Below, one piece after another: positions 344 to 44,285 of a stretch of 44,285 nucleotides of DNA (position 1 is its first letter; each line of letters opens with the position of its first letter). Source of the stretch: Nitrospirota bacterium (GTDB lineage Bacteria; Nitrospirota; Thermodesulfovibrionia; Thermodesulfovibrionales; SM23-35). The translations under genes were made by a program, and so were the position numbers. The notes under the pieces are model-generated. The model had not been told where the DNA came from and did not search any database. It was given only the letters and a program-made list of their open reading frames with translations. Location of the stretch: NCBI GenBank assembly GCA_043802315.1, contig JAZDLE010000036.1, positions 1-44,285 on the forward strand. Reading direction: 5' to 3'.

Positions 344-1271
344 TGATCTTCTTAATCACATAGATGGGTTTTCTCTGGCTTTCATGATAGACCCTCACGA
401 GCATCTCACCAAGAAGGCCCATTCCGATAAGCTGAATCCCAACGATAATCAAGAGAGCACCGAGCAGGAGAAGAGGTCTCCCCCCGATATTATGTCCGGA
501 AAAGATTTTATCTACAGCCAGGTAAAGGGATATGAGGAAACCGAGGAATCCGCTTATGACACCTACGGGACCAAAGAATTGAATTGGTTTCGTGGAAAAG
601 CTCTGGAGAAATTTTACGGTAATTAAATCCAAGACGACCTTTATCGTTCGTGAAATACCATATTTTGATCTTCCCTTGAGCCTCGGATGGTGCACAACCT
701 CTACCTCTGCAACCCTCACACCATACCAGCTCGCAACAGCAGGGATAAACCTGTGCATCTCTCCATAGAGTTTCAGGTTTTTTATCACATCCCTTCTGTA
801 TGCCTTCAGAGAGCAACCATAATCGTGGAGCTTTACGCCTGTAACTTTACTGATAAGCCAGTTTGCTAACAGGGAGGGAAGCGTTCTCCTGAAAAACGGG
901 TCCTTCCTTTTTTTTCTCCATCCACTCACGAGGTCATTGTCTTTTGTCAGTTCAAGAAGTTTCGGGATATCAGCAGGGTCATTCTGGAGGTCACCATCCA
1001 TTGTTACGACAATGTCTCCGCGTGCAAAATCGAATCCTGCTGCAAATGCTGCAGTCTGGCCGAAGTTGCGTCTCAGGCTCAGTACAACAACCCTGGTATC
1101 CTTAGCCTGAATTTCTTCAAGGAGAGAGAGAGTCCTGTCAGTGCTTCCATCATCTACAAAAAGTATCTCGTATTCCTTTTTTAGAGAATCAAGGGTTTCC
1201 TTCAGTTTCTCATAGAGGATAGGTATACTTTCCTCTTCATTGTAAAGAGGTATGATTACGGAAAGGGTCAT
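333..1271 (-). CDS. Family 2 glycosyltransferase, polyprenyl-phosphate sugar transferase type (ArnC/GtrB/DPM1-like)
   Basis: 312-aa ORF. It has the GT-A signature VIIPLYNEEESI..FVDDGSTD..MDGDLQNDP and two C-terminal TM helices. It sits directly downstream of an ArnT-like GT39 gene, with a TAATG-type junction at 1271. Confidence 0.85.
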   Translation of the reverse strand: MTLSVIIPLYNEEESIPILYEKLKETLDSLKKEYEILFVDDGSTDRTLSLLEEIQAKDTRVVVLSLRRNFGQTAAFAAGFDFARGDIVVTMDGDLQNDPADIPKLLELTKDNDLVSGWRKKRKDPFFRRTLPSLLANWLISKVTGVKLHDYGCSLKAYRRDVIKNLKLYGEMHRFIPAVASWYGVRVAEVEVVHHPRLKGRSKYGISRTIKVVLDLITVKFLQSFSTKPIQFFGPVGVISGFLGFLISLYLAVDKIFSGHNIGGRPLLLLGALLIIVGIQLIGMGLLGEMLVRVYHESQRKPIYVIKKIIGP

Positions 1272-3376
1272 TAATACGTTCCTGGTTTTTCTTCTCTCAT
1301 GCCCTTAAAATCATAGCACAGCAAGAGAGAATAATCTCTGATTTTCTCATTGTTAATGTAAACCGTAAAGAGCCTTTTCTCGATCTTTTCAAAAGCACTG
1401 GCTACCGGTTCGGGTACCTTGGTATCCCCTATTCTAACAAGGATTGCATTATGATGGAGGAGTTCATGAAATCCAGGCCAGAGGTCGTACTGGTTCATCC
1501 TGCGGTCAAGGTTAATGCAATAAGTGATAGGATGTCCTTTTACATAAAAGGCGAGTTCACTTGAAACCTGGTACCTATCAGAAAATATAAATATGGCCCT
1601 CCCTTCATACATCTCTTCGTATATCTTCGTCACCTCTGACCCAAGTTCTTTCCAACCTCTTAGCCTGCTGGTAGGGTCTTTTTTGGCAGGAAGGTTAAGG
1701 ATTGAAGGATAATGCGCCAAGGCCGTAACGACCACAGATAGGAGAACTGCTGTTGCAATGAAAATCATTTTGCCTTTTCTTTCAGGAAAAACCTTTTTGG
1801 AGAATGCAGAAAAAGAAAGAATGCCTGTTATATAACCTGGTAGTGCCCAGTTTGCCTGCACCTTACCCTGAAGACTTTTTAAAAGGAAAAAGGCAATGAT
1901 AGGAATAGAAAACCAGAAAAGAAGATCACCCCCTTTCTGTTTCCGTTGGTTCCAGAGAGAGAAGGTCATGAGTATAAAGAGAAGAGGGGTAATTACTCCA
2001 AACTGTGAGCCAACAAATTCAAAGAAACTTCTTAAGGCTATTCTTGCGCCCTCTGCTACATGTGCCTGTCCTGCTGTATGTCTCAGGGTGACCCACTCAT
2101 GGTCTGCATTCCACAGTAATACAGGACTGAAGACCAGAAGGCTTATGATAAAAGCGATATAAGGACCTGTCGTTAGTAAAAGTCTCCTCTCCCTCAAGAA
2201 TAAGAAAAGAAAAGCGCAGAGATAAAAGAGTGCCATGGTGTATTTTGTGAGAAGACCAAAGCCCACTGAAAAGCCAAGGAGGATCCAGTATATGAGTGAT
2301 GTGTGATTAGTTCGTGATGCGTAATCCGTGATGCGTGATGAGTCAAATCCCTCCTTGCCCCCTTTAGAAAAAGGGGGGGTGGGGGGATTACTGGAGTGTA
2401 AGGGATGATATGAGTTTTCTATTGAAAGATAAAACAAAAATAATGACAGTATCCAAAAGAATATAAAGGGTGAATCTATGGTGAATATTATCCCGAATGT
2501 TGAAAAAAGTGGGATAATCTGTATCAATATTGCTGAGAAAAGTCCGACCTGTTTATCATACAGTTTCTTCCCGAGGATATACATGTAGATACTACTGAGA
2601 TAAGAGAAGATGACCGCCATCATTCTGATACCAAAGACATTGTCTCCGAGTATCATAGTGCCAAAATATATGAGATATGCGATCATCGGCCCTTTTGAGT
2701 AATAACTCAAATCAAGCCTCCGCGACCACTCCCAGTAATGAGCTTCGTCAGGACTCAAATCGAGAAATCCCTTCTGGATGTAATATATGCGGAAAAGACT
2801 AAGTGCAAGGAGGAAAACAAAGAGTATAGTAGAGTAAGGTTTTATCTTAAACCTCTCATATGCCATGTTATAGAAACCAATTAAACATAGTGCTAACCCA
2901 ATGCCGACGAGTCCGCCCACAAGAGAATCTGAAGGATAATGTACACCAACGTAGATCCTTGAAAAACTCACAAGAAAGGCAATGATTAAAAAGGCATATC
3001 GCAACCTGTTTTTAAAGAGGATAAGAAATGGTACTGCAAAAGCAAAACTGTTCGCAGCATGGCTTGAAGGCATCGAGTAAGAACTGCTACAACCAACAAG
3101 GAGGTGGACACCTTCGAGTTCGTTGCAGGGCCGCGGCCTTTCAAAAATATGTTTAAGGATATATAAACCCCAATCGGATAAAGCTAAGGAGGCAAAACCG
3201 AGCACTAAGACAAGGCATGCCTTTTTCCAGTCCTTGTAAAAGAACCATCCTACGAAAGGGAATATCAGGAGATATGCCTTGCTTGTAAAAAAAGGCATGG
3301 CAACATCGAAAAGTCTGTTCTGGAGGTCTCTGTTTATGAAGAAAAAGATGAGGGTATCTACCTCAGGAAGGCTCAT
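1271..3376 (-). CDS. Fusion protein: N-terminal PAP2 (acid phosphatase / undecaprenyl-PP phosphatase-like) domain plus GT39 (ArnT/PMT-like) polyprenyl-phosphate-dependent glycosyltransferase
   Basis: 701-aa ORF. PAP2 motifs: KHIFERPRP, SMPSSH, SRIYVGVHYPSD. These are followed by a polytopic GT39-like region (DEAHYWEWSRRLDLSYYSKGPMIAY..). It contains an in-frame repeat insertion at 2313-2389. Confidence 0.75.
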   Translation of the reverse strand: MSLPEVDTLIFFFINRDLQNRLFDVAMPFFTSKAYLLIFPFVGWFFYKDWKKACLVLVLGFASLALSDWGLYILKHIFERPRPCNELEGVHLLVGCSSSYSMPSSHAANSFAFAVPFLILFKNRLRYAFLIIAFLVSFSRIYVGVHYPSDSLVGGLVGIGLALCLIGFYNMAYERFKIKPYSTILFVFLLALSLFRIYYIQKGFLDLSPDEAHYWEWSRRLDLSYYSKGPMIAYLIYFGTMILGDNVFGIRMMAVIFSYLSSIYMYILGKKLYDKQVGLFSAILIQIIPLFSTFGIIFTIDSPFIFFWILSLFLFYLSIENSYHPLHSSNPPTPPFSKGGKEGFDSSRITDYASRTNHTSLIYWILLGFSVGFGLLTKYTMALFYLCAFLFLFLRERRLLLTTGPYIAFIISLLVFSPVLLWNADHEWVTLRHTAGQAHVAEGARIALRSFFEFVGSQFGVITPLLFILMTFSLWNQRKQKGGDLLFWFSIPIIAFFLLKSLQGKVQANWALPGYITGILSFSAFSKKVFPERKGKMIFIATAVLLSVVVTALAHYPSILNLPAKKDPTSRLRGWKELGSEVTKIYEEMYEGRAIFIFSDRYQVSSELAFYVKGHPITYCINLDRRMNQYDLWPGFHELLHHNAILVRIGDTKVPEPVASAFEKIEKRLFTVYINNEKIRDYSLLLCYDFKGMREEKPGTY
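2313..2389. repeat. Composite repeat inside the GT39 CDS: duplicated decamer CGTGATGCGT (2313-2322, 2327-2336) followed by a G/C-tract nested palindrome (2346-2389)
   Basis: The + strand reads cgtgatgcgtaatccgtgatgcgtgatgagtcaaatccctccttgccccctttagaaaaagggggggtggggggatt. The - strand CDS reads it as ..NPPTPPFSKGGKEGFDSSRITDYASRT.. Confidence 0.85.

Positions 3377-9369: not shown

Positions 9370-9373
<4 letters not shown>
8750..9373 (-). CDS. plsC: 1-acyl-sn-glycerol-3-phosphate acyltransferase
   Basis: 207 aa with the HX4D motif AANHVSYLDPPV and the FPEGGRS motif. Confidence 0.85.
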
Positions 9374-10053
<680 letters not shown>

Positions 10054-10072
10054 TTATTACTTCTTTTTAATA

Positions 10073-10094
10073 CCCCACAGTCTCTGCTGTGGGG
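10073..10094. repeat. Hairpin repeat copy 1: CCCCACAG-TCTCTG-CTGTGGGG
   Basis: 8-bp G/C-clamped stem with a 6-nt loop, preceded by ATA. It has the same flank and loop as the copy at 10167-10188. Confidence 0.8.
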
Positions 10095-10097
10095 TTT

Positions 10098-10138
10098 CCT
10101 CCTACCCCCACTTTGGCAAAGGGGGGCGAGGGGGGATT
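10098..10138. repeat. G/C-tract nested palindrome, 5'-degenerate copy
   Basis: cctcctacccccactttggcaaaggggggcgaggggggatt. The inner arms CCCCCACTTT/AAAGGGGGG and the right outer arm GGGGGGATT are intact. Confidence 0.75.
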
Positions 10139-10166
10139 TTAAATTAATAAAATTTACCTAAAGATA

Positions 10167-10188
10167 CCCCGCCGTCTCTGCGGCGGGG
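10167..10188. repeat. Hairpin repeat copy 2: CCCCGCCG-TCTCTG-CGGCGGGG
   Basis: The architecture matches 10073-10094. The two stem differences are compensated on the opposite arm. Confidence 0.8.
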
Positions 10189-10228
10189 AGGTTCATTAAC
10201 CTCATTTGCGAAGTTTTTGCTGCTTCAA

Positions 10229-10263
10229 CTCCCCCTTTTCTAAAGGGGGAGTAAGGGGGATTA
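10229..10263. repeat. G/C-tract nested palindrome, copy lacking the left outer arm
   Basis: ctcccccttttctaaagggggagtaagggggatta. Confidence 0.7.
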
Positions 10264-10307: not shown

Positions 10308-11645
10308 TTATGTTGTTAACCTTTTCAAAATATCAAAGAATCCAGGGAATGATATGCTGACAGATGAGACATCATTGATTGTTGTTGTCCCATCAGCAAT
10401 GATGGCTGCAATTGCCATCGCCATTGCAATCCTGTGGTCCTTGTGACTTTCTATAACTGCACCTTTTAATCCCCTCCCACCTGTGATATTCAGGCCATCT
10501 TCGAACTCCTCGATTTCTGCTCCCATCTTTCTGAGTTCCGTTGATATCGTTTTTATCCTGTCAGACTCCTTTACTCGAAGCTCCTCTGCCCCCCTGATAG
10601 TTGTGATTCCCGTACCCTGAGTTGCTACCACGCAAAAAATAGGAAATTCATCAATCAGAGAAGGGATTCTTTCTTTTGTTATGTGAATGCTCTTCAATTC
10701 CCTATCACCTTTACAATATATGTCAGCAATAGGTTCACCTGATACTTCCTTGATATTGGAGATTCTGATATCCGCCCCCATCTCTTGAAGTACACTGAGA
10801 AGGCCAGTCCTTGTAGGATTAATGCCTACTCCCTTGATCAGAATCTCAGAATCTCTGATTAGCAATGTCCCGGCGATAAAGAATGCAGCAGATGAGAAAT
10901 CCCCTGGCACATACATCTCTAAACCTATCAGTTCTGTTCCACCTTGTATCTTTATATGAAAGTCTTCAATTTTTATTTCTGCACCAAAGGCAGGCAGCAT
11001 CCGTTCTGTGTGGTCCCTTGACTTAAGAGGTTCTATAACTTCTGTCTCTCCTTCTGCATAAAGGCCTGCGAGGAGAATAGCTGACTTAACCTGAGCGCTC
11101 GCTACAGGCATGGTATATTGAATTGCCCTCAGTCTTTTGCCCCGAATAGCAATGGGTGGATATCTATCGTCACACCTTGCTATTATCTCCGCACCCATCT
11201 GTCTTAAGGGGATGATGACCCTCGACATTGGCCTTTGCCTTAAGGATTCATCTCCTGTCAGGACAGAAAAGAAAGGATTTCCTGAAAGCACTCCTGAGAG
11301 GAGCCTCATTGTCGTGCCTGAGTTTCCGCAATCAATAGTATCAATTGTCTCTTTAAGCCCGTATAACCCCTTACCATGGATTATGAGTTCACCTGAAAAT
11401 CCCCCCTCGCCCCCCTTTACTAAAGGGGGGATGGGGGGGATTACATTTTCTTCTATTTCAATGCCAAGCATCCTCATGGCATTTACAGTGCTTATTGTAT
11501 CTTCAGCCCTGAGGAAGTTTTTTATTATGCTTTTTCCTTTTGAGAGGGAAGAGAATATTACAGCCCTGTGGGATATGGACTTATCAGGGGGAGGAGAAAA
11601 ATCACCTTTAAAACTTTTTGCCTTGCTGAGCTCAATTCTGTCCAA
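10308..11645 (-). CDS. aroA: 3-phosphoshikimate 1-carboxyvinyltransferase (EPSP synthase) carrying a 15-codon palindromic-element insertion
   Basis: 445 aa with ..PPDKSISHRAVIFSSL.., ..GNSGTTMRLL.. and ..KESDRI.. motifs. Only a TTG start (11645) is available upstream of the conserved N-terminus. Confidence 0.9.
   Translation of the reverse strand: MDRIELSKAKSFKGDFSPPPDKSISHRAVIFSSLSKGKSIIKNFLRAEDTISTVNAMRMLGIEIEENVIPPIPPLVKGGEGGFSGELIIHGKGLYGLKETIDTIDCGNSGTTMRLLSGVLSGNPFFSVLTGDESLRQRPMSRVIIPLRQMGAEIIARCDDRYPPIAIRGKRLRAIQYTMPVASAQVKSAILLAGLYAEGETEVIEPLKSRDHTERMLPAFGAEIKIEDFHIKIQGGTELIGLEMYVPGDFSSAAFFIAGTLLIRDSEILIKGVGINPTRTGLLSVLQEMGADIRISNIKEVSGEPIADIYCKGDRELKSIHITKERIPSLIDEFPIFCVVATQGTGITTIRGAEELRVKESDRIKTISTELRKMGAEIEEFEDGLNITGGRGLKGAVIESHKDHRIAMAMAIAAIIADGTTTINDVSSVSISFPGFFDILKRLTT
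11408..11452. repeat. G/C-tract nested palindrome (intact copy) inside aroA
   Basis: aatcccccctcgcccccctttactaaaggggggatgggggggatt, 45 nt. aroA on the - strand reads it as IPPIPPLVKGGEGGF. The + strand shadow ORF reads the same DNA as PPSPPFTKGGMGG. Confidence 0.9.
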
Positions 11646-19467: not shown

Positions 19468-20094
19468 TTAAGGATTATATTCGTATATCTTTACATCCTC
19501 TGGTAAGGAAGGCACGAATAGACCCTCTTTCAAATCCGTATTAACTTTTATATCTTTCAGTATTATCTCTATCCTGTTAGAGTGTGAATCTATTATTGTA
19601 AAGGAACGTATCGGAAATTCACCCTCAGAAGTTTCAATTTCTATAGAGAGAATTCCTCCCATAGAGCTTTTTGGTTTCAGGAGAAGATGTTTGTTCTTTT
19701 GGGATACTATAAACTCCTCATGAAGTTTTCCAAATCCACTCAACAGGGCTATTGGTGCCTGGCCATAGGTATTCCAGTCAAATCTTCCCCTGAATGCCTG
19801 TCTTTCCTTCTTCTGGTATATAATGATTTCATCATTATTGATAAAAACTTCCTGGGGTGCTTCTCCTTTATACTCCCATTTCACCTTCTTCGGAATCTTC
19901 ATAGAGAATTGACCTTGATATGTCTCAATGCGTTTAAGGTCTTTTATGTAGCTTTTCTGTATAAAATTTCCCCTCATGTCTCTGATATTCCCATAAGCCT
20001 TCTGAATCCTCTGTATTTCTTCATCGATTAAAGCTTCAGAGATAGAAATAAACGCCAAAATGATGATTAAAGCAATGAAAAATGACTTTTTCAT
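19468..20094 (-). CDS. LolA-like outer-membrane lipoprotein carrier / chaperone family protein
   Basis: 208 aa. It has a signal peptide and ..I..I...Y..I.DMRGNF.Q...IK.L.R.ETYQG.F..K.P.K..WEY.. typical of the LolA fold family. Confidence 0.65.
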   Translation of the reverse strand: MKKSFFIALIIILAFISISEALIDEEIQRIQKAYGNIRDMRGNFIQKSYIKDLKRIETYQGQFSMKIPKKVKWEYKGEAPQEVFINNDEIIIYQKKERQAFRGRFDWNTYGQAPIALLSGFGKLHEEFIVSQKNKHLLLKPKSSMGGILSIEIETSEGEFPIRSFTIIDSHSNRIEIILKDIKVNTDLKEGLFVPSLPEDVKIYEYNP

Positions 20095-20284
20095 ATTTTT
20101 TGCAGCACCCCTTTAAAAATAGCATATTAAAGGATAAGCTTCAAGTGTCCCAATTTGCATAAACAGCACAAGCAACATAGAACAATACTGGTAGCCAATC
20201 AAGCGTATTTGCGAACCAAGTTAAACAAGAGGTGGTATCTCCAATTGAGTGATCGAAGCAAAAAGAGGAATTCACTATAATTCT

Positions 20285-20378
20285 TCCCCTCACTTGACGG
20301 GAGGGGACAAAGGGGAGGGTGAGCTAAAAGATATGGTTACCCCCTCCCTTACGCTCCCCCATCAAGGGGGAGGGGGGG
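20285..20378. repeat. Two divergent G/C-tract palindromes (20285-20323 and 20340-20378)
   Basis: tcccctcacttgacgggaggggacaaaggggagggtgag and ccccctcccttacgctcccccatcaagggggaggggggg. Both have nested C-tract/G-tract arms in an otherwise AT-rich spacer. Confidence 0.6.
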
Positions 20379-20509
20379 CAGTGTAGAATGTGAAGTTGTG
20401 TCAGTCTGAATAGTTATTCAAATATGCCTGATCCTTATAGCGGGAAAAGAGATGTTCACAAAGAGAGACATATTGTTGATAAAATGAGTCGTAAGGTTTA
20501 TAGTTTTTC

Positions 20510-21295
20510 ATGACAGATACTTGGCGCTTCATTGATACAGGACCTTGCAGGGCTTCTTACAATATGGCCATGGATGAGGCGATTGCTACGGTAGTCAAAA
20601 AAGGGAATTCACCTCCAACATTAAGGCTTTACGAATGGGATATCCCATCTGTCAGTATTGGATACTTTCAGAGGATGAGGGATATTAACATTGATCATTG
20701 TAGAGAGAGGGGTATTCCAATTGTCAGAAGACCCACGGGAGGCCGTGCAATCTTGCATGACCATGAGATCACATACAGTTTCTCTGTCAAGACAGAATAT
20801 GGACTATTCTCGAAGGGCTTACTCGACAGCTATAAAAAGATCAGCAAGGCTTTTAGCTGTGCCTTCTCAAAGATCGGCCTCGCATCAGAATTAAAACTGC
20901 AGAGAGAACCTCATCGCAACAGAAGTCCATTATGTTTTCAGTCAACATCATACGGAGAGATAACTATTAACAGTAAGAAAGTTATTGGCTCAGCTCAAAA
21001 ACGCTGGCCTGACGGTCTTCTTCAGCAGGGTTCTATCCCCTTTACTATTGATGAGGATGAAATCGCTAAGGTATTCAGGCTCAAATCGTCTGAAATAGGA
21101 AAGAAGTTTACCGGACTAAAAAAAATACTTTCTGATTTAAACATTGCTAGTTTCAAAAATGCTCTAAGAATCTCATTCGAGGAGACCTTCGATACTATGC
21201 TTATTCCTTCTTCTCCTTCACATGAGGAGGTCTCTCTTGCCGGGGAACTTGAAGTCAGAAAGTATCGCTCACCTTCGTGGAATTTCCAGAGATAG
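20510..21295 (+). CDS. Lipoate-protein ligase A / octanoyltransferase family (BPL_LplA_LipB domain) protein
   Basis: 261 aa with ..LRLYEWDIPSVSIGYFQ.., ..VRRPTGGRAILHD.E.TYS.. and ..K.IGSAQKR.. motifs. Confidence 0.8.
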   Translation: MTDTWRFIDTGPCRASYNMAMDEAIATVVKKGNSPPTLRLYEWDIPSVSIGYFQRMRDINIDHCRERGIPIVRRPTGGRAILHDHEITYSFSVKTEYGLFSKGLLDSYKKISKAFSCAFSKIGLASELKLQREPHRNRSPLCFQSTSYGEITINSKKVIGSAQKRWPDGLLQQGSIPFTIDEDEIAKVFRLKSSEIGKKFTGLKKILSDLNIASFKNALRISFEETFDTMLIPSSPSHEEVSLAGELEVRKYRSPSWNFQR

Positions 21296-35837: not shown

Positions 35838-37025
35838 TTATTTCAACAGGTGTTTTACCCTCAGCCGCAGGGCATTGAGTTTTATAAAACCTTCTGCATC
35901 TTTCTGATTATATACATTTTCTGCTTCAAATGTTGCAAGCCCGGGGTGATAAAGAGAATTTGGAGATTTTCTTCCGACGACGTAACAATTTCCCTTATAT
36001 ATCTTGATCCTGACTGTACCATTAACATCTTTCTGTACATCATCCATGAGGGTCTGCAATGCTTTCCTCTCCGGAGAAAACCAGTATCCATAATATATAA
36101 GCTCAGAATAGCGCGTTATCAGTGAGTCTCTGAGGTGCAGTATCTCCCTGTCAAGGGTTATTGACTCTATTGCCCTGTGGGCAACATGGAGAACTGTGCC
36201 TCCAGGAGTTTCATAAACGCCCCTTGATTTAATTCCGACATATCTGTTTTCTACCATATCAACCCTTCCAACTCCATGTTCACCAGCAAAGTGGTTCAAT
36301 CTCGCAAGCAGGGTTGCTGGAGACAAAAGTTCATTATTGATTGCAACAGGGTCACCTTTCTCATAAGAGATTTCAACAGAGAGAGGCTTATCAGGTGCCT
36401 TCTCAGGCGGTACGATCATGGTATACATGTCGGGTGGGGGTTCCTGCCAGGGGTCTTCCAGAATTCCTCCTTCGTAGCTGATGTGAAAGAGGTTCCTATC
36501 GGTACTATAAGGTTTTTCCTTTGTTGCTGTAACAGGGATACCATGCTTTTCGGCATATTCAATCAGGGATTGCCTTGAATTGAATGGCCATTCCCTCCAT
36601 GGTGCTATAACCTTTATGGTAGGTTTAAATGCATAATAGGTTAGTTCAAATCTCACCTGGTCATTACCCTTTCCAGTCGCACCATGGGCAACAGCCTCAG
36701 CGCCTTCCTTCTCTGCTATCTCAATCTGTCTCTTAGCAATAAGAGGTCTCGCTATTGACGTCCCGAGCAGATATGAACCCTCGTAAACTGCATTTGCCCT
36801 GAGCATGGGGAATATATAGTCTTTTACGAACTCCTCTTTTAAGTCCTCTACATAAACTTTTGCTGCACCCGTCTTCAATGCCTTTTCTCTTATGGGATCT
36901 GTCTCTTCTCCCTGGCCAAGATCCGCATAGAAGGCAATTATTTCTGTGCTGTACTGCTCTTTTAGCCATTTTATTGCCACGGAGGTATCAAGACCTCCCG
37001 AGTATGCAAGGATTATTTTATTCAT
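35838..37025 (-). CDS. argG: Argininosuccinate synthase
   Basis: 395 aa with [12 protein letters not shown].., ..[15 protein letters not shown].. and ..STDRNL.HIS.EG.. motifs. Confidence 0.95.
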
Positions 37026-37042
37026 TCAAACCCCCTCTATGA

Positions 37043-37089
37043 GCAGAGAGCTAAGAGCACCTGTACACTCATAGCTCTTAGCTCTCTGC
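37043..37089. repeat. Perfect 16-bp inverted repeat GCAGAGAGCTAAGAGC - 15 nt - GCTCTTAGCTCTCTGC
   Basis: Read directly from the sequence. It lies 18 nt upstream of the argG start codon (in the 5' leader on the - strand) and 230 nt downstream of the fur stop. Confidence 0.85.
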
Positions 37090-37164
37090 TATGAGCTTCT
37101 TCAAGTCATAAAACCATAGCATAAATCTAAAAAAAATGTAAAATGCATCAATGGAAAATTAAGT

Positions 37165-37208
37165 AATCCCCCCCGCCCCCCCTTGAGAACAGGGGGGGCG
37201 GGGGGGAT
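37165..37208. repeat. G/C-tract nested palindrome (intact, intergenic copy)
   Basis: aatcccccccgcccccccttgagaacagggggggcggggggatt. Confidence 0.85.
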
Positions 37209-37319
37209 TTGAATGATTATTTTTGGAGAAAAATATAAAACACTCTTGAACAAGGTCTAAATTTCAGCTCAAGAATAAAGGGGAATGATGAGAGGGTGGA
37301 GCTATCGAGAGAGCGGAAT

Positions 37320-37751
37320 TCATTTCCTCGTCTTCCTGCATTTACTACAGTATCCCTTTATCTCGAGAGTATGGGTTACGCCTTCGAACCCTTTCTTTTT
37401 GCATATCTTATTCTGAAGACCTTCTAACGCCTCAGAATAAAACTCTATGACACTGCCGCATGAAATACAGAGCATATGATCATGATGGTTTCTGCCGAAA
37501 GTCTGTTCATAGTGGGCATGTTTTTCAGTTCTTTCCACCTGCTCAATGAGACCGCTTTCAAGAAGGAGAGGAAGAGTTCTGTAAATGGATGCCTTTGAAA
37601 CTTTTAGTCCTTTTTTCTTCATTCCGATATAAAGTTCCTCAGGGTCAAAATGGCCGTATCGAGAAGAAATATCCTTGAGTATCAACTCTCTCTCTCTTGT
37701 AAATTTAAGACCTTTACTCTTAAGATGTTCTCTGAATACCCTTTCTCGCAT
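37320..37751 (-). CDS. fur: Fur-family metalloregulator
   Basis: 143 aa with ..LK.T..R..IL......GHF..EELY......G..VS.ASIYRTL..L...GLI.., HHDH..C..CG..IEF and a C-terminal CxxC. Confidence 0.85.
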   Translation of the reverse strand: MRERVFREHLKSKGLKFTRERELILKDISSRYGHFDPEELYIGMKKKGLKVSKASIYRTLPLLLESGLIEQVERTEKHAHYEQTFGRNHHDHMLCISCGSVIEFYSEALEGLQNKICKKKGFEGVTHTLEIKGYCSKCRKTRK

Positions 37752-41738: not shown

Positions 41739-42422
41739 TCAATATAGATAAAGAACAGAGAACTTAGCCCTTTCAGATGGATTCGCTGCATTTTCTGCAT
41801 CTACTTCTATCGTATAAAGATACGGATAACTCATTACCCGTATTTCACCAGAATTAGAATCCACCACTCGATTGTTTATCAGACCTTCGTCTCCTGCGCT
41901 ATTACCCTCAACTGTGTCCACTATTTTTGAATATACATTATATGTAGGAACTGTCCCGAGAGTAAAGACCATGTCATAGGAAGTACCTGTATTAGGGTTG
42001 ATGACCATGGTGTTATCACAACCAGCCCAAGAAGTAGTTGGTGTATTAAGTTTTGCTGCTAATCCTGTAAAAGATGTTCCAGATAGATTTGTACCGGTAC
42101 AAGTAGCGGGTGTTGTAATAGCAGGAGCAAGAGCCGATAAATCACTTAAAAAAGAGGCAGTTCTTGATGTATCTCCTCTAAGCCCAGCAAGCTGATAGGT
42201 GATGTCAGTGCCGCCCATAGCAGCCTCAGATGCGGTTTTGTATCTTTTTTGCATACCTGAAATCTGGGTTCCCGTTGTTATCATATAGATCAATCCTGCC
42301 ATGATGACGAGCGTAATAGCCGAGAGCAAGAGAACCATTACAAGGGCAATGCCTTTTTCGTTCATGAGTTGAGAACTCGACTGCTGACTTTTGACCTCTG
42401 GCTGCTGACTTCTCATGATCAC
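41739..42422 (-). CDS. PilX-like minor pilin / pseudopilin
   Basis: ..EKGIALVMVLLLSAITLVIMAGLIYM.. followed by ..YKTASEAAMGG.. has a PilX_N-like layout. ATG 42422 overlaps the upstream stop (ATGA). An alternative start, ATG 42365 (MNEKG..), would skip the SQQPEVKSQQS segment encoded by a duplicated decamer. Confidence 0.55.
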   Translation of the reverse strand: MIMRSQQPEVKSQQSSSQLMNEKGIALVMVLLLSAITLVIMAGLIYMITTGTQISGMQKRYKTASEAAMGGTDITYQLAGLRGDTSRTASFLSDLSALAPAITTPATCTGTNLSGTSFTGLAAKLNTPTTSWAGCDNTMVINPNTGTSYDMVFTLGTVPTYNVYSKIVDTVEGNSAGDEGLINNRVVDSNSGEIRVMSYPYLYTIEVDAENAANPSERAKFSVLYLY

Positions 42423-43606
42423 CTCAGATTATTCGGTCTTACAACCAATGTGTATAATTTCCACCGATAATTTACGTTTGCCCCAATATCAAAATTACGT
42501 CCTCCTCCGATGGCAGGGTCGCCGACATATATTGTCGTAGGCGTATGAGTGTAATTTACATCTCTTTGTCCCTCGTGGGCTAAAACATATACTCTTACCT
42601 CTTTTACCTGATCTCTTATCTGTTGGGCTGTAAGTGCGGATATGTCATCAGTAGTGTTATCAATAGTCCCATCACCGTCAGTATCCCGGCGATAGACTAC
42701 CTGCATATCAGCAGCACAGTCAAGAAGTGGGAGGAAGTTATAGTTTCCACCAGCATCATGGTTCATTGTAGCTTTGAAAAGGATGCCTGTATTTGGAGCA
42801 CACCTCTGGGGCGTATTAGTAGCTGGTCTTTGGATAAAATAATCTGACCTGTTGAACGGTCTTACAGGAAAGCTTGCGCTGCTATCGTTAACGCCGTATA
42901 TAATATGAGTGTCCGTTGAAACCGTTGGTGCAAAGCCAGCGGTAATACTGAATGTTGTAGTAAATGCTCCACCACTCACAATCAGTGACCTGCTGTTTAA
43001 ATCAGTGCTTCCCGGAAAAACAACGATTACCCTGTCTGTTCCGTTGAGGTCTTCGCTTGCAATGCCCCATGTCCTTTTGGTATCGCCTGAGGTTTGCGTA
43101 GTCCATTTTTGGCATGCATCATTCCTGGCGACATTTACAGCTTTTATCACCAAATAATCTGAACCATCAAAGATGTCATTTGGACTGCTGAAAGTTGCAT
43201 TATTTGCGCTAACAAGAGCCTTAGGTGCATCATTTGGTGCATCATTGAGATTGAACGGATTTGTTCCTCCTTCACTATAACCGGGTAGATGTTCCCAGAA
43301 ATTTCCATCACCATCAGTATCAGCAATTCCTGTTACATTCCATGGCAATCCGTACCCTGCATGCCCTATATCCTGCTTTAAGATCTCGAGACCTACAATT
43401 CCCTCTATATTGGTCTCAGCTATCTTGCTTTGTTGCTTGAATTGGGTTAATAGTCCCGTAAATATCTGGGAACCTGCCGCCATAACAAGCACAAAGACAA
43501 CCATTGTTATCAACAACTCTATTAAAGTAAACCCTGCTTTAGAGTTAATCCCCCCTTGCCCCCCTTTAGTAAAGGGGGGATGGGGGGATTTTTTGCGCTT
43601 AATCAT
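42419..43606 (-). CDS. PilW-like minor pilin with a prepilin N-terminal cleavage/methylation motif; the leader peptide is expanded by a palindromic element
   Basis: 395 aa. MIKRKKSPHPPFTKGGQGGINSKAG/FTLIELLITMVVFVLVMAAG.. is the class III signal. The ATG overlaps the upstream stop (ATGA). Confidence 0.7.
   Translation of the reverse strand: MIKRKKSPHPPFTKGGQGGINSKAGFTLIELLITMVVFVLVMAAGSQIFTGLLTQFKQQSKIAETNIEGIVGLEILKQDIGHAGYGLPWNVTGIADTDGDGNFWEHLPGYSEGGTNPFNLNDAPNDAPKALVSANNATFSSPNDIFDGSDYLVIKAVNVARNDACQKWTTQTSGDTKRTWGIASEDLNGTDRVIVVFPGSTDLNSRSLIVSGGAFTTTFSITAGFAPTVSTDTHIIYGVNDSSASFPVRPFNRSDYFIQRPATNTPQRCAPNTGILFKATMNHDAGGNYNFLPLLDCAADMQVVYRRDTDGDGTIDNTTDDISALTAQQIRDQVKEVRVYVLAHEGQRDVNYTHTPTTIYVGDPAIGGGRNFDIGANVNYRWKLYTLVVRPNNLR
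43547..43590. repeat. G/C-tract nested palindrome (intact copy) inside the prepilin leader-coding region
   Basis: aatccccccttgcccccctttagtaaaggggggatggggggatt. The - strand CDS reads it as SPHPPFTKGGQGGIN. Confidence 0.9.
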
Positions 43607-43980
43607 GGTCTCCTCACTATTGTTGTAATGCTATGAATATAGTTCTCGCCCTTCCATGTCCATCCCACTGTGATATCCACTCTGTTGACAGTGTTGAGAT
43701 TGGTAACCGTCATTCTTGTAGTATATGGAAAATTTGTTATGCTTCTGATGTTTCTTGTAATAGGTATATCTGCGCCATCTGAAACCAAAGAATCAAAAGG
43801 TGTGTTCCTTGCCTCATTCATTCTCATCTCAGCAATGCCGACAGCCTCATCTCTCAGTACATTCCTCATATTTGCATCAATCGATACCAATGCTGTCTGC
43901 ATCAGGGCAAGGGAGACTAAAAGAAGTACTACAAGGGCAATCATTACCTCGACAAGGGTCAAGCCTTTTTTATTTAGCAT
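43603..43980 (-). CDS. PilV-like minor pilin (prepilin-type N-terminal methylation domain)
   Basis: MLNKKG/LTLVEVMIALVVLLLVSLALMQ.. ATG 43980 is preferred because it gives a short leader. The tracked start is 44001. Confidence 0.7.
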   Translation of the reverse strand: MLNKKGLTLVEVMIALVVLLLVSLALMQTALVSIDANMRNVLRDEAVGIAEMRMNEARNTPFDSLVSDGADIPITRNIRSITNFPYTTRMTVTNLNTVNRVDITVGWTWKGENYIHSITTIVRRP

Positions 43981-44285
43981 CACAATTTGTAGTCGTTGCA
44001 TTCCATTTCCCCATATTTATTCTTGTGGCAAATAATACTATGCAGTCATAATCTGGATCTACAGTCGAAGTAACACTAATAGTCCCATTAGGAGATACGA
44101 GCCCCCTATTGTCAAATGTAATATTACCACCACCCCAGGTTAAAGCATATTGAATTGTTTTAGTTGGCAGTACTAGAGCATCGTTTGCAATTTCAAGAGT
44201 TCCGTTGCCGTCAGGCACAGGATCAGTGTCTTCAAATATTCTATAAGAGGTTGTATTAGGAAAATTAACAAAATGCACCCTGTTT
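43970..44285 (-). CDS. GspH/FimT-like pseudopilin, C-terminal part (the 5' end lies beyond the window)
   Basis: The reading frame stays open to the window edge. The C-terminal beta-rich region contains ..GGGNITFDNRGLVSPNGTISV.. as in FimT/GspH proteins. It is the first gene of the minor-pilin string. Confidence 0.5.
   Translation of the reverse strand, partial: NRVHFVNFPNTTSYRIFEDTDPVPDGNGTLEIANDALVLPTKTIQYALTWGGGNITFDNRGLVSPNGTISVTSTVDPDYDCIVLFATRINMGKWNATTTNCDAK

Follow-up and report, generated by a model that had tools for sequence, protein, structure and literature searches.

We analysed a stretch of 44,285 nt (here denoted the window) from a Nitrospirota bacterium of an uncultured lineage (Thermodesulfovibrionales; contig JAZDLE010000036.1), in which an imperfect palindrome of 44 nt lies near the 5' end of a pilW-family minor pilin gene. 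The palindrome belongs to a multi-phylum family of ~45-bp repeats built around runs of six C and six G (here denoted the C6/G6 element). The explanation we consider probable is that a mobile or proliferating repeat of this family became fixed in frame in the segment of pilW that encodes the cytoplasmic class III leader, where it would be read through by the ribosome, cleaved off with the leader and tolerated as a passenger, such leaders acting as a safe harbour. The features concerned are listed below; a slash following the last Gly of a leader marks the predicted prepilin peptidase site.

43547-43590, no strand assigned: imperfect palindromic repeat of 44 nt, plus strand AATCCCCCCTTGCCCCCCTTTAGTAAAGGGGGGATGGGGGGATT, read on the minus strand as K-SPHPPFTKGGQGG-I (nhmmer, 57 bits).
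42419-43606, minus strand: pilW-family minor pilin gene, 395 aa (PF07963 and PF16074).
43532-43606, minus strand: leader-coding segment of pilW, codons 1-25 (MIKRKKSPHPPFTKGGQGGINSKAG), whose last residue is Gly-1 of the predicted prepilin peptidase site; the orthologues have 7 codons here.
43466-43531, minus strand: N-terminus of mature PilW, FTLIELLITMVVFVLVMAAGSQ, with Phe+1, Glu+5 and the hydrophobic alpha1-N helix (Pfam N_methyl), conserved in all orthologues.
43603-43615, minus strand: pilV-pilW junction, composed of GAGGAG (43615-43610), ACC and ATGA, with the pilW ATG at 43606-43604 and the pilV TGA at 43605-43603.
43603-44001, minus strand: pilV-like prepilin gene with an unexpanded leader, MLNKKG/LTLVEV (N_methyl match).
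41739-42422, minus strand: pilX-like gene whose GTG overlaps the pilW stop (GTGA), with a low-complexity extension of 19 codons, IMRSQQPEVKSQQSSSQL, between this GTG and the canonical MNEKG/IALV.

The pilW leader and its insertion

On the minus strand, ATGATTAAGCGCAAAAAATCCCCCCATCCCCCCTTTACTAAAGGGGGGCAAGGGGGGATTAACTCTAAAGCAGGGTTTACT is translated into MIKRKKSPHPPFTKGGQGGINSKAG/FTLIEL, and the open reading frame (ORF) continues as FTLIELLITM. The initial annotation had proposed that pilW starts at an ATG overlapping the upstream stop codon (ATGA) and that its leader comprises 25 aa; both are confirmed from the sequence, the start region reading GAGGAG-ACC-ATGATTAAGCGCAAAAAATCCCCCCATCCCCCCTTTACTAAAGGGGGGCAAGGGGGGATTAACTCTAAAGCAGGG/TTTACTTTAATAGAGTTG. 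The overlap of the pilV stop with the pilW start, together with the GAGGAG motif, suggests translational coupling, and in nearly all orthologous loci the start codon likewise overlaps the stop upstream of it or directly adjoins it. The genes pilV, pilW and pilX, with their overlapping stops and starts, provide a minor-pilin operon context, and two syntenic loci (L061 and L064) additionally hold genes for GspH-like and PilY1-like proteins.

PF07963 (N_methyl) has a single match in PilW, at residues 21-44 (E = 7.6e-7, above the gathering score), and PF16074, the PilW C-terminal domain, matches residues 256-391 with 29.1 bits against a cut-off of 26. The features of a class III signal peptide are present at G25/FTLIELLITMVVFVLVMAAG. 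Homologues of PilW (n = 1982) come mostly from Nitrospirota/Thermodesulfovibrionales, an exact-sequence look-up of the window protein gave no match, and the window contains no pilD gene.

Class III leaders are hydrophilic, reside in the cytoplasm and are cut after Gly-1, with documented lengths of 6-26 aa (PMC4471445). At 25 aa, the PilW leader still falls inside this range, whereas it is longer than the hydrophilic leader of fewer than 10 aa typical of type IVa prepilins and than the 7 aa that form the mode among the orthologues. The insert adds Pro, Gly and Lys without any acidic or hydrophobic stretch, and the whole leader holds six Lys/Arg residues (+6). Upstream of the G/F site there are further GG motifs, none followed by a hydrophobic +1 to +21 segment bearing Glu+5. 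We infer that prepilin peptidase removes the leader at Gly25/Phe26 on the cytoplasmic face, which would leave the mature pilin unchanged and the insert a tolerated passenger, and that the upstream GG dipeptides, with no hydrophobic helix behind them, are not substrates of the peptidase.

Empty relatives directly support the insertion of the element. The closest syntenic relatives (L061, L062 and L065-L068; PilW up to 82% identical) have the same junction of Shine-Dalgarno (SD) sequence and ATGA, followed by the leader MIR(Q or R)E(T or A)G/F, and the nine closest PilW homologues (70-82% identity) are 14-15 residues shorter at the N-terminus, beginning with MIRQETG/FTLIEL or similar. Locus L061 is fully syntenic with the window (gspH-like gene, pilV, pilW, pilX-like gene, He_PIG protein gene, feoB, feoA/dtxR, fur and argG); its junction, ...AATAGTGAGGAGACCATGA..., is the same as in the window and runs directly into ATCAGGCAGGAAACAGGT/TTTACT. 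The expansion of the leader that the initial annotation had put forward holds, but its extent, given there as 15 residues, does not: relative to the 7-aa orthologues the net insertion is 18 codons (54 nt), consisting of the 44-nt palindrome and about 10 nt more. The filled leader of 75 nt is identical in an independent metagenome contig (L063, JGI sample 3300034100), which rules out an assembly artefact, and filled leaders are present in assemblies from JGI, ENA and NCBI, including long-read metagenome-assembled genomes (MAGs).

About 140 orthologous loci (60 in species-representative genomes, 80 in metagenomes) were fetched by tblastn independently of gene calls, and the frame was followed from the G/F codon back to the start overlapping or abutting the stop of the upstream gene. 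A start coupled in this way was found at 131 loci, where 96 leaders have at most 12 aa and 35 are longer (27 distinct DNA sequences). After identical mature proteins had been collapsed (n = 114), 81 leaders measured 6-12 aa (mode 7) and 29 measured 16-68 aa, and the remaining 4 unique orthologues were without a recognisable overlapping upstream gene. The 10 loci missed by the tracing motif are cut off at the end, short-leadered or in frame. Among the long PilW leaders, at least 14 classes of unrelated sequence can be told apart. Equally long leaders in relatives had been named as a finding that would speak against an expansion; they do occur, but only in relatives with other insertions, and the modal leader remains at 7 aa.

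Leader segments as landing sites

The suggestion that the leader is a permissive landing site is borne out in the collected pilin operons, where PilV, PilW, PilX-like and FimT/GspH-like leaders repeatedly carry this and other repeat families. The pilV leaders of L061, L006, L011, L078, L101 and L126 contain the same repeat family in frame (..LLNKNNPPTPPFTKGGLGGITDEKG/LTLVEV in L061 and others), those of L001 and L097 contain tandem copies, and other loci carry other repeats. The pilX-like and fimT/gspH-like leaders follow the same pattern, with repeats of this and other families; at the position of the pilX extension, L061 and L063 have other palindromic repeats, and L001, L011 and L138 have the C6/G6 element with its ATT replacing the ATG. 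Other inserts in PilW leaders include an SRQHVVDS...STVYRLLST palindrome, SAISYQLSAIS-type repeats, RYRMQD...SCIG palindromes and a PLYQRG/LVKRG hairpin. The PilW leader of L097 (about 2501-2704) reaches 68 aa and holds, in frame, a classical miniature inverted-repeat transposable element (MITE) of ~180 nt that has terminal inverted repeats and a target duplication of 8 bp, GAAGCAGG. At L125 the insert lies past the first G/F, giving two candidate cleavage motifs.

The enrichment of the element in leaders was directly observed. About 36 of the 40 non-redundant C6/G6 copies at the pilin-operon loci are located in FimT, PilV, PilW or PilX leader segments; of the remainder, one lies inside another ORF, one is intergenic, one is just upstream of a start (in a stop-containing frame) and one is ambiguous. 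Since leader segments make up ~1-2% of these loci, the enrichment over the remainder of the locus is more than 100-fold, even after collapsing the copies to roughly 15 independent events. The leaders of the four overlapping minor-pilin genes would thus offer a safe harbour and probably also a preferred target in an operon without intergenic DNA, and candidate causes of such a preference are A-rich Lys/Asn codons before the Gly, gene conversion among paralogous leaders, and selection.

With somewhat less than even confidence, we put forward a broader proposal, in which class III leaders, being cleaved in the cytoplasm and otherwise little constrained in sequence, are a genuine hot spot, and more than a tolerated site, for several unrelated selfish palindrome families in Thermodesulfovibrionales. 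All four minor-pilin genes would repeatedly gain, swap and shed inserts in frame, with leaders that reach 68 aa, and the C6/G6 element would stand beside the Rickettsia palindromic elements (RPEs) as their counterpart in several phyla, so far undescribed. If this were true, prepilin peptidase and targeting via SRP (signal recognition particle) and Sec would accept almost arbitrary leader cargo, and either the repeats would target A-rich Lys/Asn-Gly coding junctions or the cells would set minor-pilin dosage by means of the hairpin or the long leader.

Several points weigh against the explanation preferred here. The density of copies in leaders, compared with intergenic and other coding DNA, exceeds what permissiveness alone would give, and target preference, gene conversion among leader paralogues or positive selection must contribute to it. 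The leader of the window (43532-43606) and that of L063 (1235-1309) show 0 differences in 75 nt, compared with 22 in 199 nt (about 11%) in the adjacent coding flanks, a hint of constraint or of a tract that recombined recently, as opposed to neutral drift. A hairpin of -33 kcal/mol located 17 nt past the ATG could depress translation, and neutrality is in this respect an assumption. The start codon, cleavage and piliation in this lineage are all deduced from sequence. Finally, comparison of filled and empty sites in pilW (window and L063 vs L061), pilV (L061 vs window) and aroA (window and L264 vs L263) detected no consistent target-site duplication, and no associated transposase turned up, a dedicated transposase search not having been made. 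Because neither turned up, mobility is deduced solely from copy number, polymorphism between strains and empty sites. The same filled and empty sites show A-rich flanks and possible short A-run repeats. A duplicated leader motif of 12 nt (ATTAAGCGCAAA and ATTAACTCTAAA) was also considered and does not hold in L001 or L076.

In one alternative, the insert is kept for a function: the hairpin past the coupled start, or the longer basic leader, would tune the amount or the processing speed of PilW and the other minor pilins, as a positively selected regulator. The pilW copy has two 20-nt arms (43547-43566 and 43571-43590) that are 85% complementary, its RNA hairpin (-33.3 kcal/mol) begins at +17, and the surrounding region of 121 nt folds better than all of 200 shuffles (z = -3.6). 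A scan for terminators and promoters in 43000-44285 detected no terminator-like site and did not classify the hairpin as one, and Rfam at gathering thresholds yielded no family in the whole window. In favour of a regulator are the strength of this hairpin, the enrichment of copies in the four leader segments far beyond the intergenic DNA of the same loci, the presence in the PilW leader alone of at least 14 unrelated inserts, many of them palindromic, and the leader identical between the window and L063 amid diverged flanks. However, 71% of the orthologues are without any insert, and the inserts decay: the copy in L064 is 9 nt short in one arm, with a hairpin of -15.8 kcal/mol, that in L001 has stem mismatches, and there are no compensatory changes. 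L076 and L097, whose mature proteins are 98% identical, have completely different inserts, and the open frame is the sole feature that the inserts have in common. We therefore regard selection for a regulatory function as unlikely and retain the tolerated passenger as the preferred explanation.

Reading frame, start codon and selection

The conservation of the reading frame was directly observed. None of the ~140 loci has a frame-breaking insert, and the frame is open from the coupled start to G/F throughout; at L050, two compensating frameshifts inside the insert restore the frame ahead of G/F. Length variants of the insert class found in the window all differ by multiples of 3, with L064 shorter by 9 nt, L001 and L076 longer by 9 nt, and P0012 longer by 36 nt. 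The chance that at least 14 independent inserts would all be stop-free and have a length that is a multiple of 3 is below about 1e-6. In the window, no ATG, GTG or TTG is found between the element and G/F. Together with the frame kept open from the coupled start, this upholds the earlier claim that translation begins upstream of the element. Judged from these sequences, ribosomes start at the upstream coupled ATG and translate the element; a start at this conserved codon, with its pilV-stop overlap and its GAGGAG Shine-Dalgarno sequence, would yield a leader of 25 aa and charge +6 instead of one of 7 aa.

A second alternative places the start downstream, at the in-frame ATT that forms the 3' end of the element, so that the precursor would begin MNSKAG/F, with the G-runs serving as Shine-Dalgarno sequence and the element as a 5' untranslated spacer. 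We considered this ATT since filled pilX genes show ATT in place of ATG, the element's ATT occupying the normal ATG position of MNEKG; in the window pilW it is likewise in frame, with AAAGGGGGG 9 nt upstream. An untranslated spacer is at odds with the absence of frame-breaking inserts and with same-insert variants that differ by multiples of 3. Moreover, in a second group of leaders, class B (..NPPIPPLTKGGKGGFEAG/F; L069, L138, P0089 and P0119), the element is read in its other open frame and its terminal ATT is out of frame. With the frame kept in all loci, a downstream non-canonical start is therefore not the general rule. Filled and empty alleles have the same SD-ATGA junction, the hairpin would bury the putative Shine-Dalgarno sequence, and ATT is a very weak start codon, all of which make initiation at the ATT very improbable in pilW of the window as well.

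Purifying selection on the mature part of PilW is directly supported by pairwise dN/dS values (Nei-Gojobori), which are 0.13-0.25 among the element-bearing genes (window, L063, L064, L001, L076, L069 and L138) and 0.10-0.16 for three other pairs including an empty or MITE-filled leader; dS is mostly saturated, which makes the comparison qualitative. The element-bearing lineages have diverged to about 57-72% protein identity over the mature region, intact ORFs are found across lineages about 55-70% identical, and the ORFs are full-length with conserved alpha1-N helices. The dN/dS values and the intact ORFs suggest that PilW function is kept in the filled lineages. The weakest alternative, that the insertion inactivated pilW by way of a non-cleavable or mis-targeted precursor and the gene is decaying, or that the insert is an artefact of metagenome assembly, is hardly credible: a 25-aa leader is indeed unusual for a type IVa-like minor pilin and assemblers can be confused by short palindromic repeats, but the ORF is full-length with intact N_methyl and PilW domains, dN/dS stays at 0.13-0.25 among diverged filled lineages, and the identical sequence in an independent sample, like the filled leaders in three databases and in long-read MAGs, stands against an artefact.

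The distribution of filled leaders that we regard as tolerated passengers bears marks of recombination. Between the window and L063, identity is 90-95% from -179 to +120 around the start, 37-66% in the middle of the gene and 88-95% near its 3' end; comparison with L061 along pilW gives the opposite pattern, the middle being closer to L061. The mosaic structure of the pilV-pilW block (42419-44001) indicates, at the level of sequence similarity, recombination within the minor-pilin genes. In a neighbour-joining tree of mature PilW, the long leaders are scattered and polyphyletic, each with short-leader sisters, and L076 (C6/G6 insert) and L097 (MITE) are only 2% apart in the mature protein. Filled and empty 5' ends have evidently been exchanged between lineages, as read from this tree and these identities, and homologous recombination would be the means by which the alleles were shuffled after insertion. 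A single ancient class-A insertion followed by vertical inheritance was rejected as the sole explanation, given the scatter of class-A leaders over the tree and the mosaic structure of the locus.

The repeat family and its known counterparts

The window contains four full copies of the element, three of which are inside ORFs (pilW, aroA and PAP2/PMT_2), and two partial copies. Besides the pilW copy, these are the following.

11398-11442, no strand assigned: second full copy, in frame within the EPSP synthase gene aroA (10308-11645, minus strand), translated as IPPIPPLVKGGEGGF; 16-aa gap against PDB 3rmt.
2346-2389, no strand assigned: third copy, in frame within the ORF of a membrane glycosyltransferase with PAP2 and PMT_2 (1271-3376, minus strand), translated as NPPTPPFSKGGKEGF; inverted-repeat and profile match.
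37165-37209, no strand assigned: fourth copy, intergenic, in the spacer between fur (37320-37751) and argG (35838-37025); perfect palindrome, RNA -47.9 kcal/mol.
10097-10263, no strand assigned: aroA-cmk spacer, with two copies that are degenerate or partial, at 10097-10139 and at 10231-10263; profile search.

A 40-mer taken from the pilW copy has 2 sites in the window at up to 3 mismatches, with 0 expected, and the relaxed core CCCCCYTT..AARGGGGG has 4 sites against 0 expected (100 shuffles). The aroA copy corresponds to a gap of 16 residues, in a loop, relative to the B. halodurans enzyme 3rmt; aroA orthologues in the clade encode 429 aa (empty) or 445 aa (filled), and many carry partly decayed versions in the same loop. 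The fur-argG copy is composed of C7-G-C7 ... G7-C-G7, and in L061 this spacer also holds a copy. Another perfect inverted repeat, of 17 nt, is found at 37042-37090, directly past argG.

A sister strain (L264; 91-95% nucleotide identity over 18 kb) is without the copy at 10097-10139. The aroA-cmk spacer at 10058-10185 contains dense hairpins (CCCCACAGTCTCTGCTGTGGGG, CCCCGCCGTCTCTGCGGCGGGG) next to a C6/G6 copy, and since L264 has different sequence there, the repeats in this spacer have recently turned over. In the glycosyltransferase gene (2290-2389), the copy is followed by a CATCACG-like repeat tract of 51-56 nt (..SSRITDYASRTNHTS..); L264 keeps the copy, lacks the tract and has 22 other bases on the other side, the protein measuring 701 aa in the window vs 690 aa. 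Between lolA (19468-20094) and the lipoate-ligase gene (20510-21295), hairpins with C/G-runs at 20280-20380 (CCCCTCACTTGACGGGAGGGG; CCCCCTCCCTTACGCTCCCCCATCAAGGGGGAGGGGGGG) resemble diverged relatives of the repeat and score below the profile threshold. The cytidylate kinase gene cmk (about 9370-10030, minus strand) has an in-frame TAG at 9820-9822 (..RTHIT-stop-TSGSVFLHG..), where the intact 218-aa gene of L264 encodes Tyr (..RTNITYTSGKVFLHG..); a pseudogene, a variant within the population and a sequencing error are all conceivable.

Alignment of 138 non-identical copies gave the consensus AATCCCCCC-N3-CCCCCCTTTA-N-TAAAGGGGGG-N3-GGGGGGATT, which may be written for the family of ~45 nt as AATC6-N3-C6TTTANTAAAG6-N3-G6ATT. 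The boundaries are sharp, the flanks are weakly A/T-rich, and no conserved tetranucleotide flanks AAT..ATT in these copies. An nhmmer profile census counted 225 copies in 1.6 Mb of collected loci, of which 113 are inside stop-free ORFs of at least 200 codons, with the readings NPPxPPFxKGGxGG[FIL] or IPPxPPLxKGGxGG. Outside the pilin loci, 66 of 113 strong copies fall within genes, distributed uniformly along the relative length of the ORF; overall, 50-58% of copies lie within long ORFs. These family properties, observed directly, go along with a sequence that is stop-free in two of three frames, whichever strand is read, and whose encoded peptide, PP[FL]xKGGxGG, is rich in Pro, Gly and Lys and lacks hydrophobic stretches.

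Among the matches listed for the 21-nt core are MAGs labelled Nitrospirota, Thermodesulfobacteriota/Deltaproteobacteria, Brocadiia, Nitrospinota and Aminicenantes, and further labels among them are Ignavibacteriae, Bacteroidetes, Methylococcaceae, Peribacteria and one Asgard bin. The core is found in L215 (JAIWHJ010000090.1, labelled Promethearchaeota) and in L161 and L220 (Peribacteria, candidate phyla radiation (CPR)); the Asgard and CPR occurrences could be real horizontal spread or binning contamination. A viral vector for spread across phyla was considered and is unsupported, with 2 matches to the 21-nt core in 2.9 million viral contigs. Full-text searches of the literature yielded no account of the repeat family or of repeats in prepilin leaders.

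Rickettsia provides the best-known cases of selfish repeats inserted in frame in bacterial genes. Here, a much smaller element would behave likewise in free-living uncultured anaerobes of several phyla, even within essential enzymes (EPSP synthase). The principle would be that a tightly overlapping operon has no sequence to spare except the leader, which is removed after membrane insertion, and that repeats accumulate there. For pilus biology, prepilin peptidases would be expected to accept leaders both longer (25-68 aa) and more arbitrary than the textbook 6-26 aa, and filled and empty leaders on near-identical mature proteins provide a natural allelic series. For annotation, the element would explain many odd N-terminal extensions and 'PPLxKGGxGG' peptides in metagenome proteins, and it warns against trimming such starts.

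Long class III leaders, of 15-30 aa, are found in type IVb pilins and Flp (PMC4471445). As in these, the PilW leader of the window is hydrophilic, of similar length, ends in Gly and is predicted to be removed by prepilin peptidase on the cytoplasmic side. There, however, a long leader characterises the pilin class as a lineage trait, whereas here it is a secondary, strain-variable insertion in a type IVa-like minor pilin with 7-aa orthologues, and the PilW leaders of relatives reach 52-68 aa, beyond the documented class III range.

Among repeats, the repetitive extragenic palindromic sequences (REPs) and REPINs mobilised by RAYT are, like the C6/G6 element, short imperfect palindromes that form hairpins, occur in many copies per genome and are polymorphic between close strains. 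REPs are extragenic by definition and have a GTAG-type 5' tetranucleotide, whereas at least half of the copies here are intragenic. MITEs that make in-frame fusions (ERIC/RU, Anabaena; PMC10969869, PMC2759123) are likewise small non-autonomous repeats that now and then lie within genes with an open frame. Typical MITEs are larger than the C6/G6 element, which is an inverted repeat over its whole length and shows no consistent target-site duplication.

RPEs (Ogata et al. 2000, summarised in PMC10969869) are, like this element, in-frame palindromes in many unrelated genes, including those of housekeeping enzymes; in either case translation adds a segment that is compatible with the function of the protein, and copies decay where they were inserted. 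RPEs measure about 100-150 bp and occur in one intracellular genus, whereas the element described here has 44-45 nt with C6/G6 runs, encodes a Pro/Gly/Lys peptide and is found in several phyla and in free-living anaerobes; no sequence relationship places it within the RPE families. We know of no RPE that concentrates in a cleaved signal-peptide leader. In its behaviour the C6/G6 element is closest to the RPEs, without being a member, as size, sequence and host range differ. In-frame selfish palindromes are thus already known, and the use of cleaved prepilin leaders as a recurrent harbour is the unreported twist.

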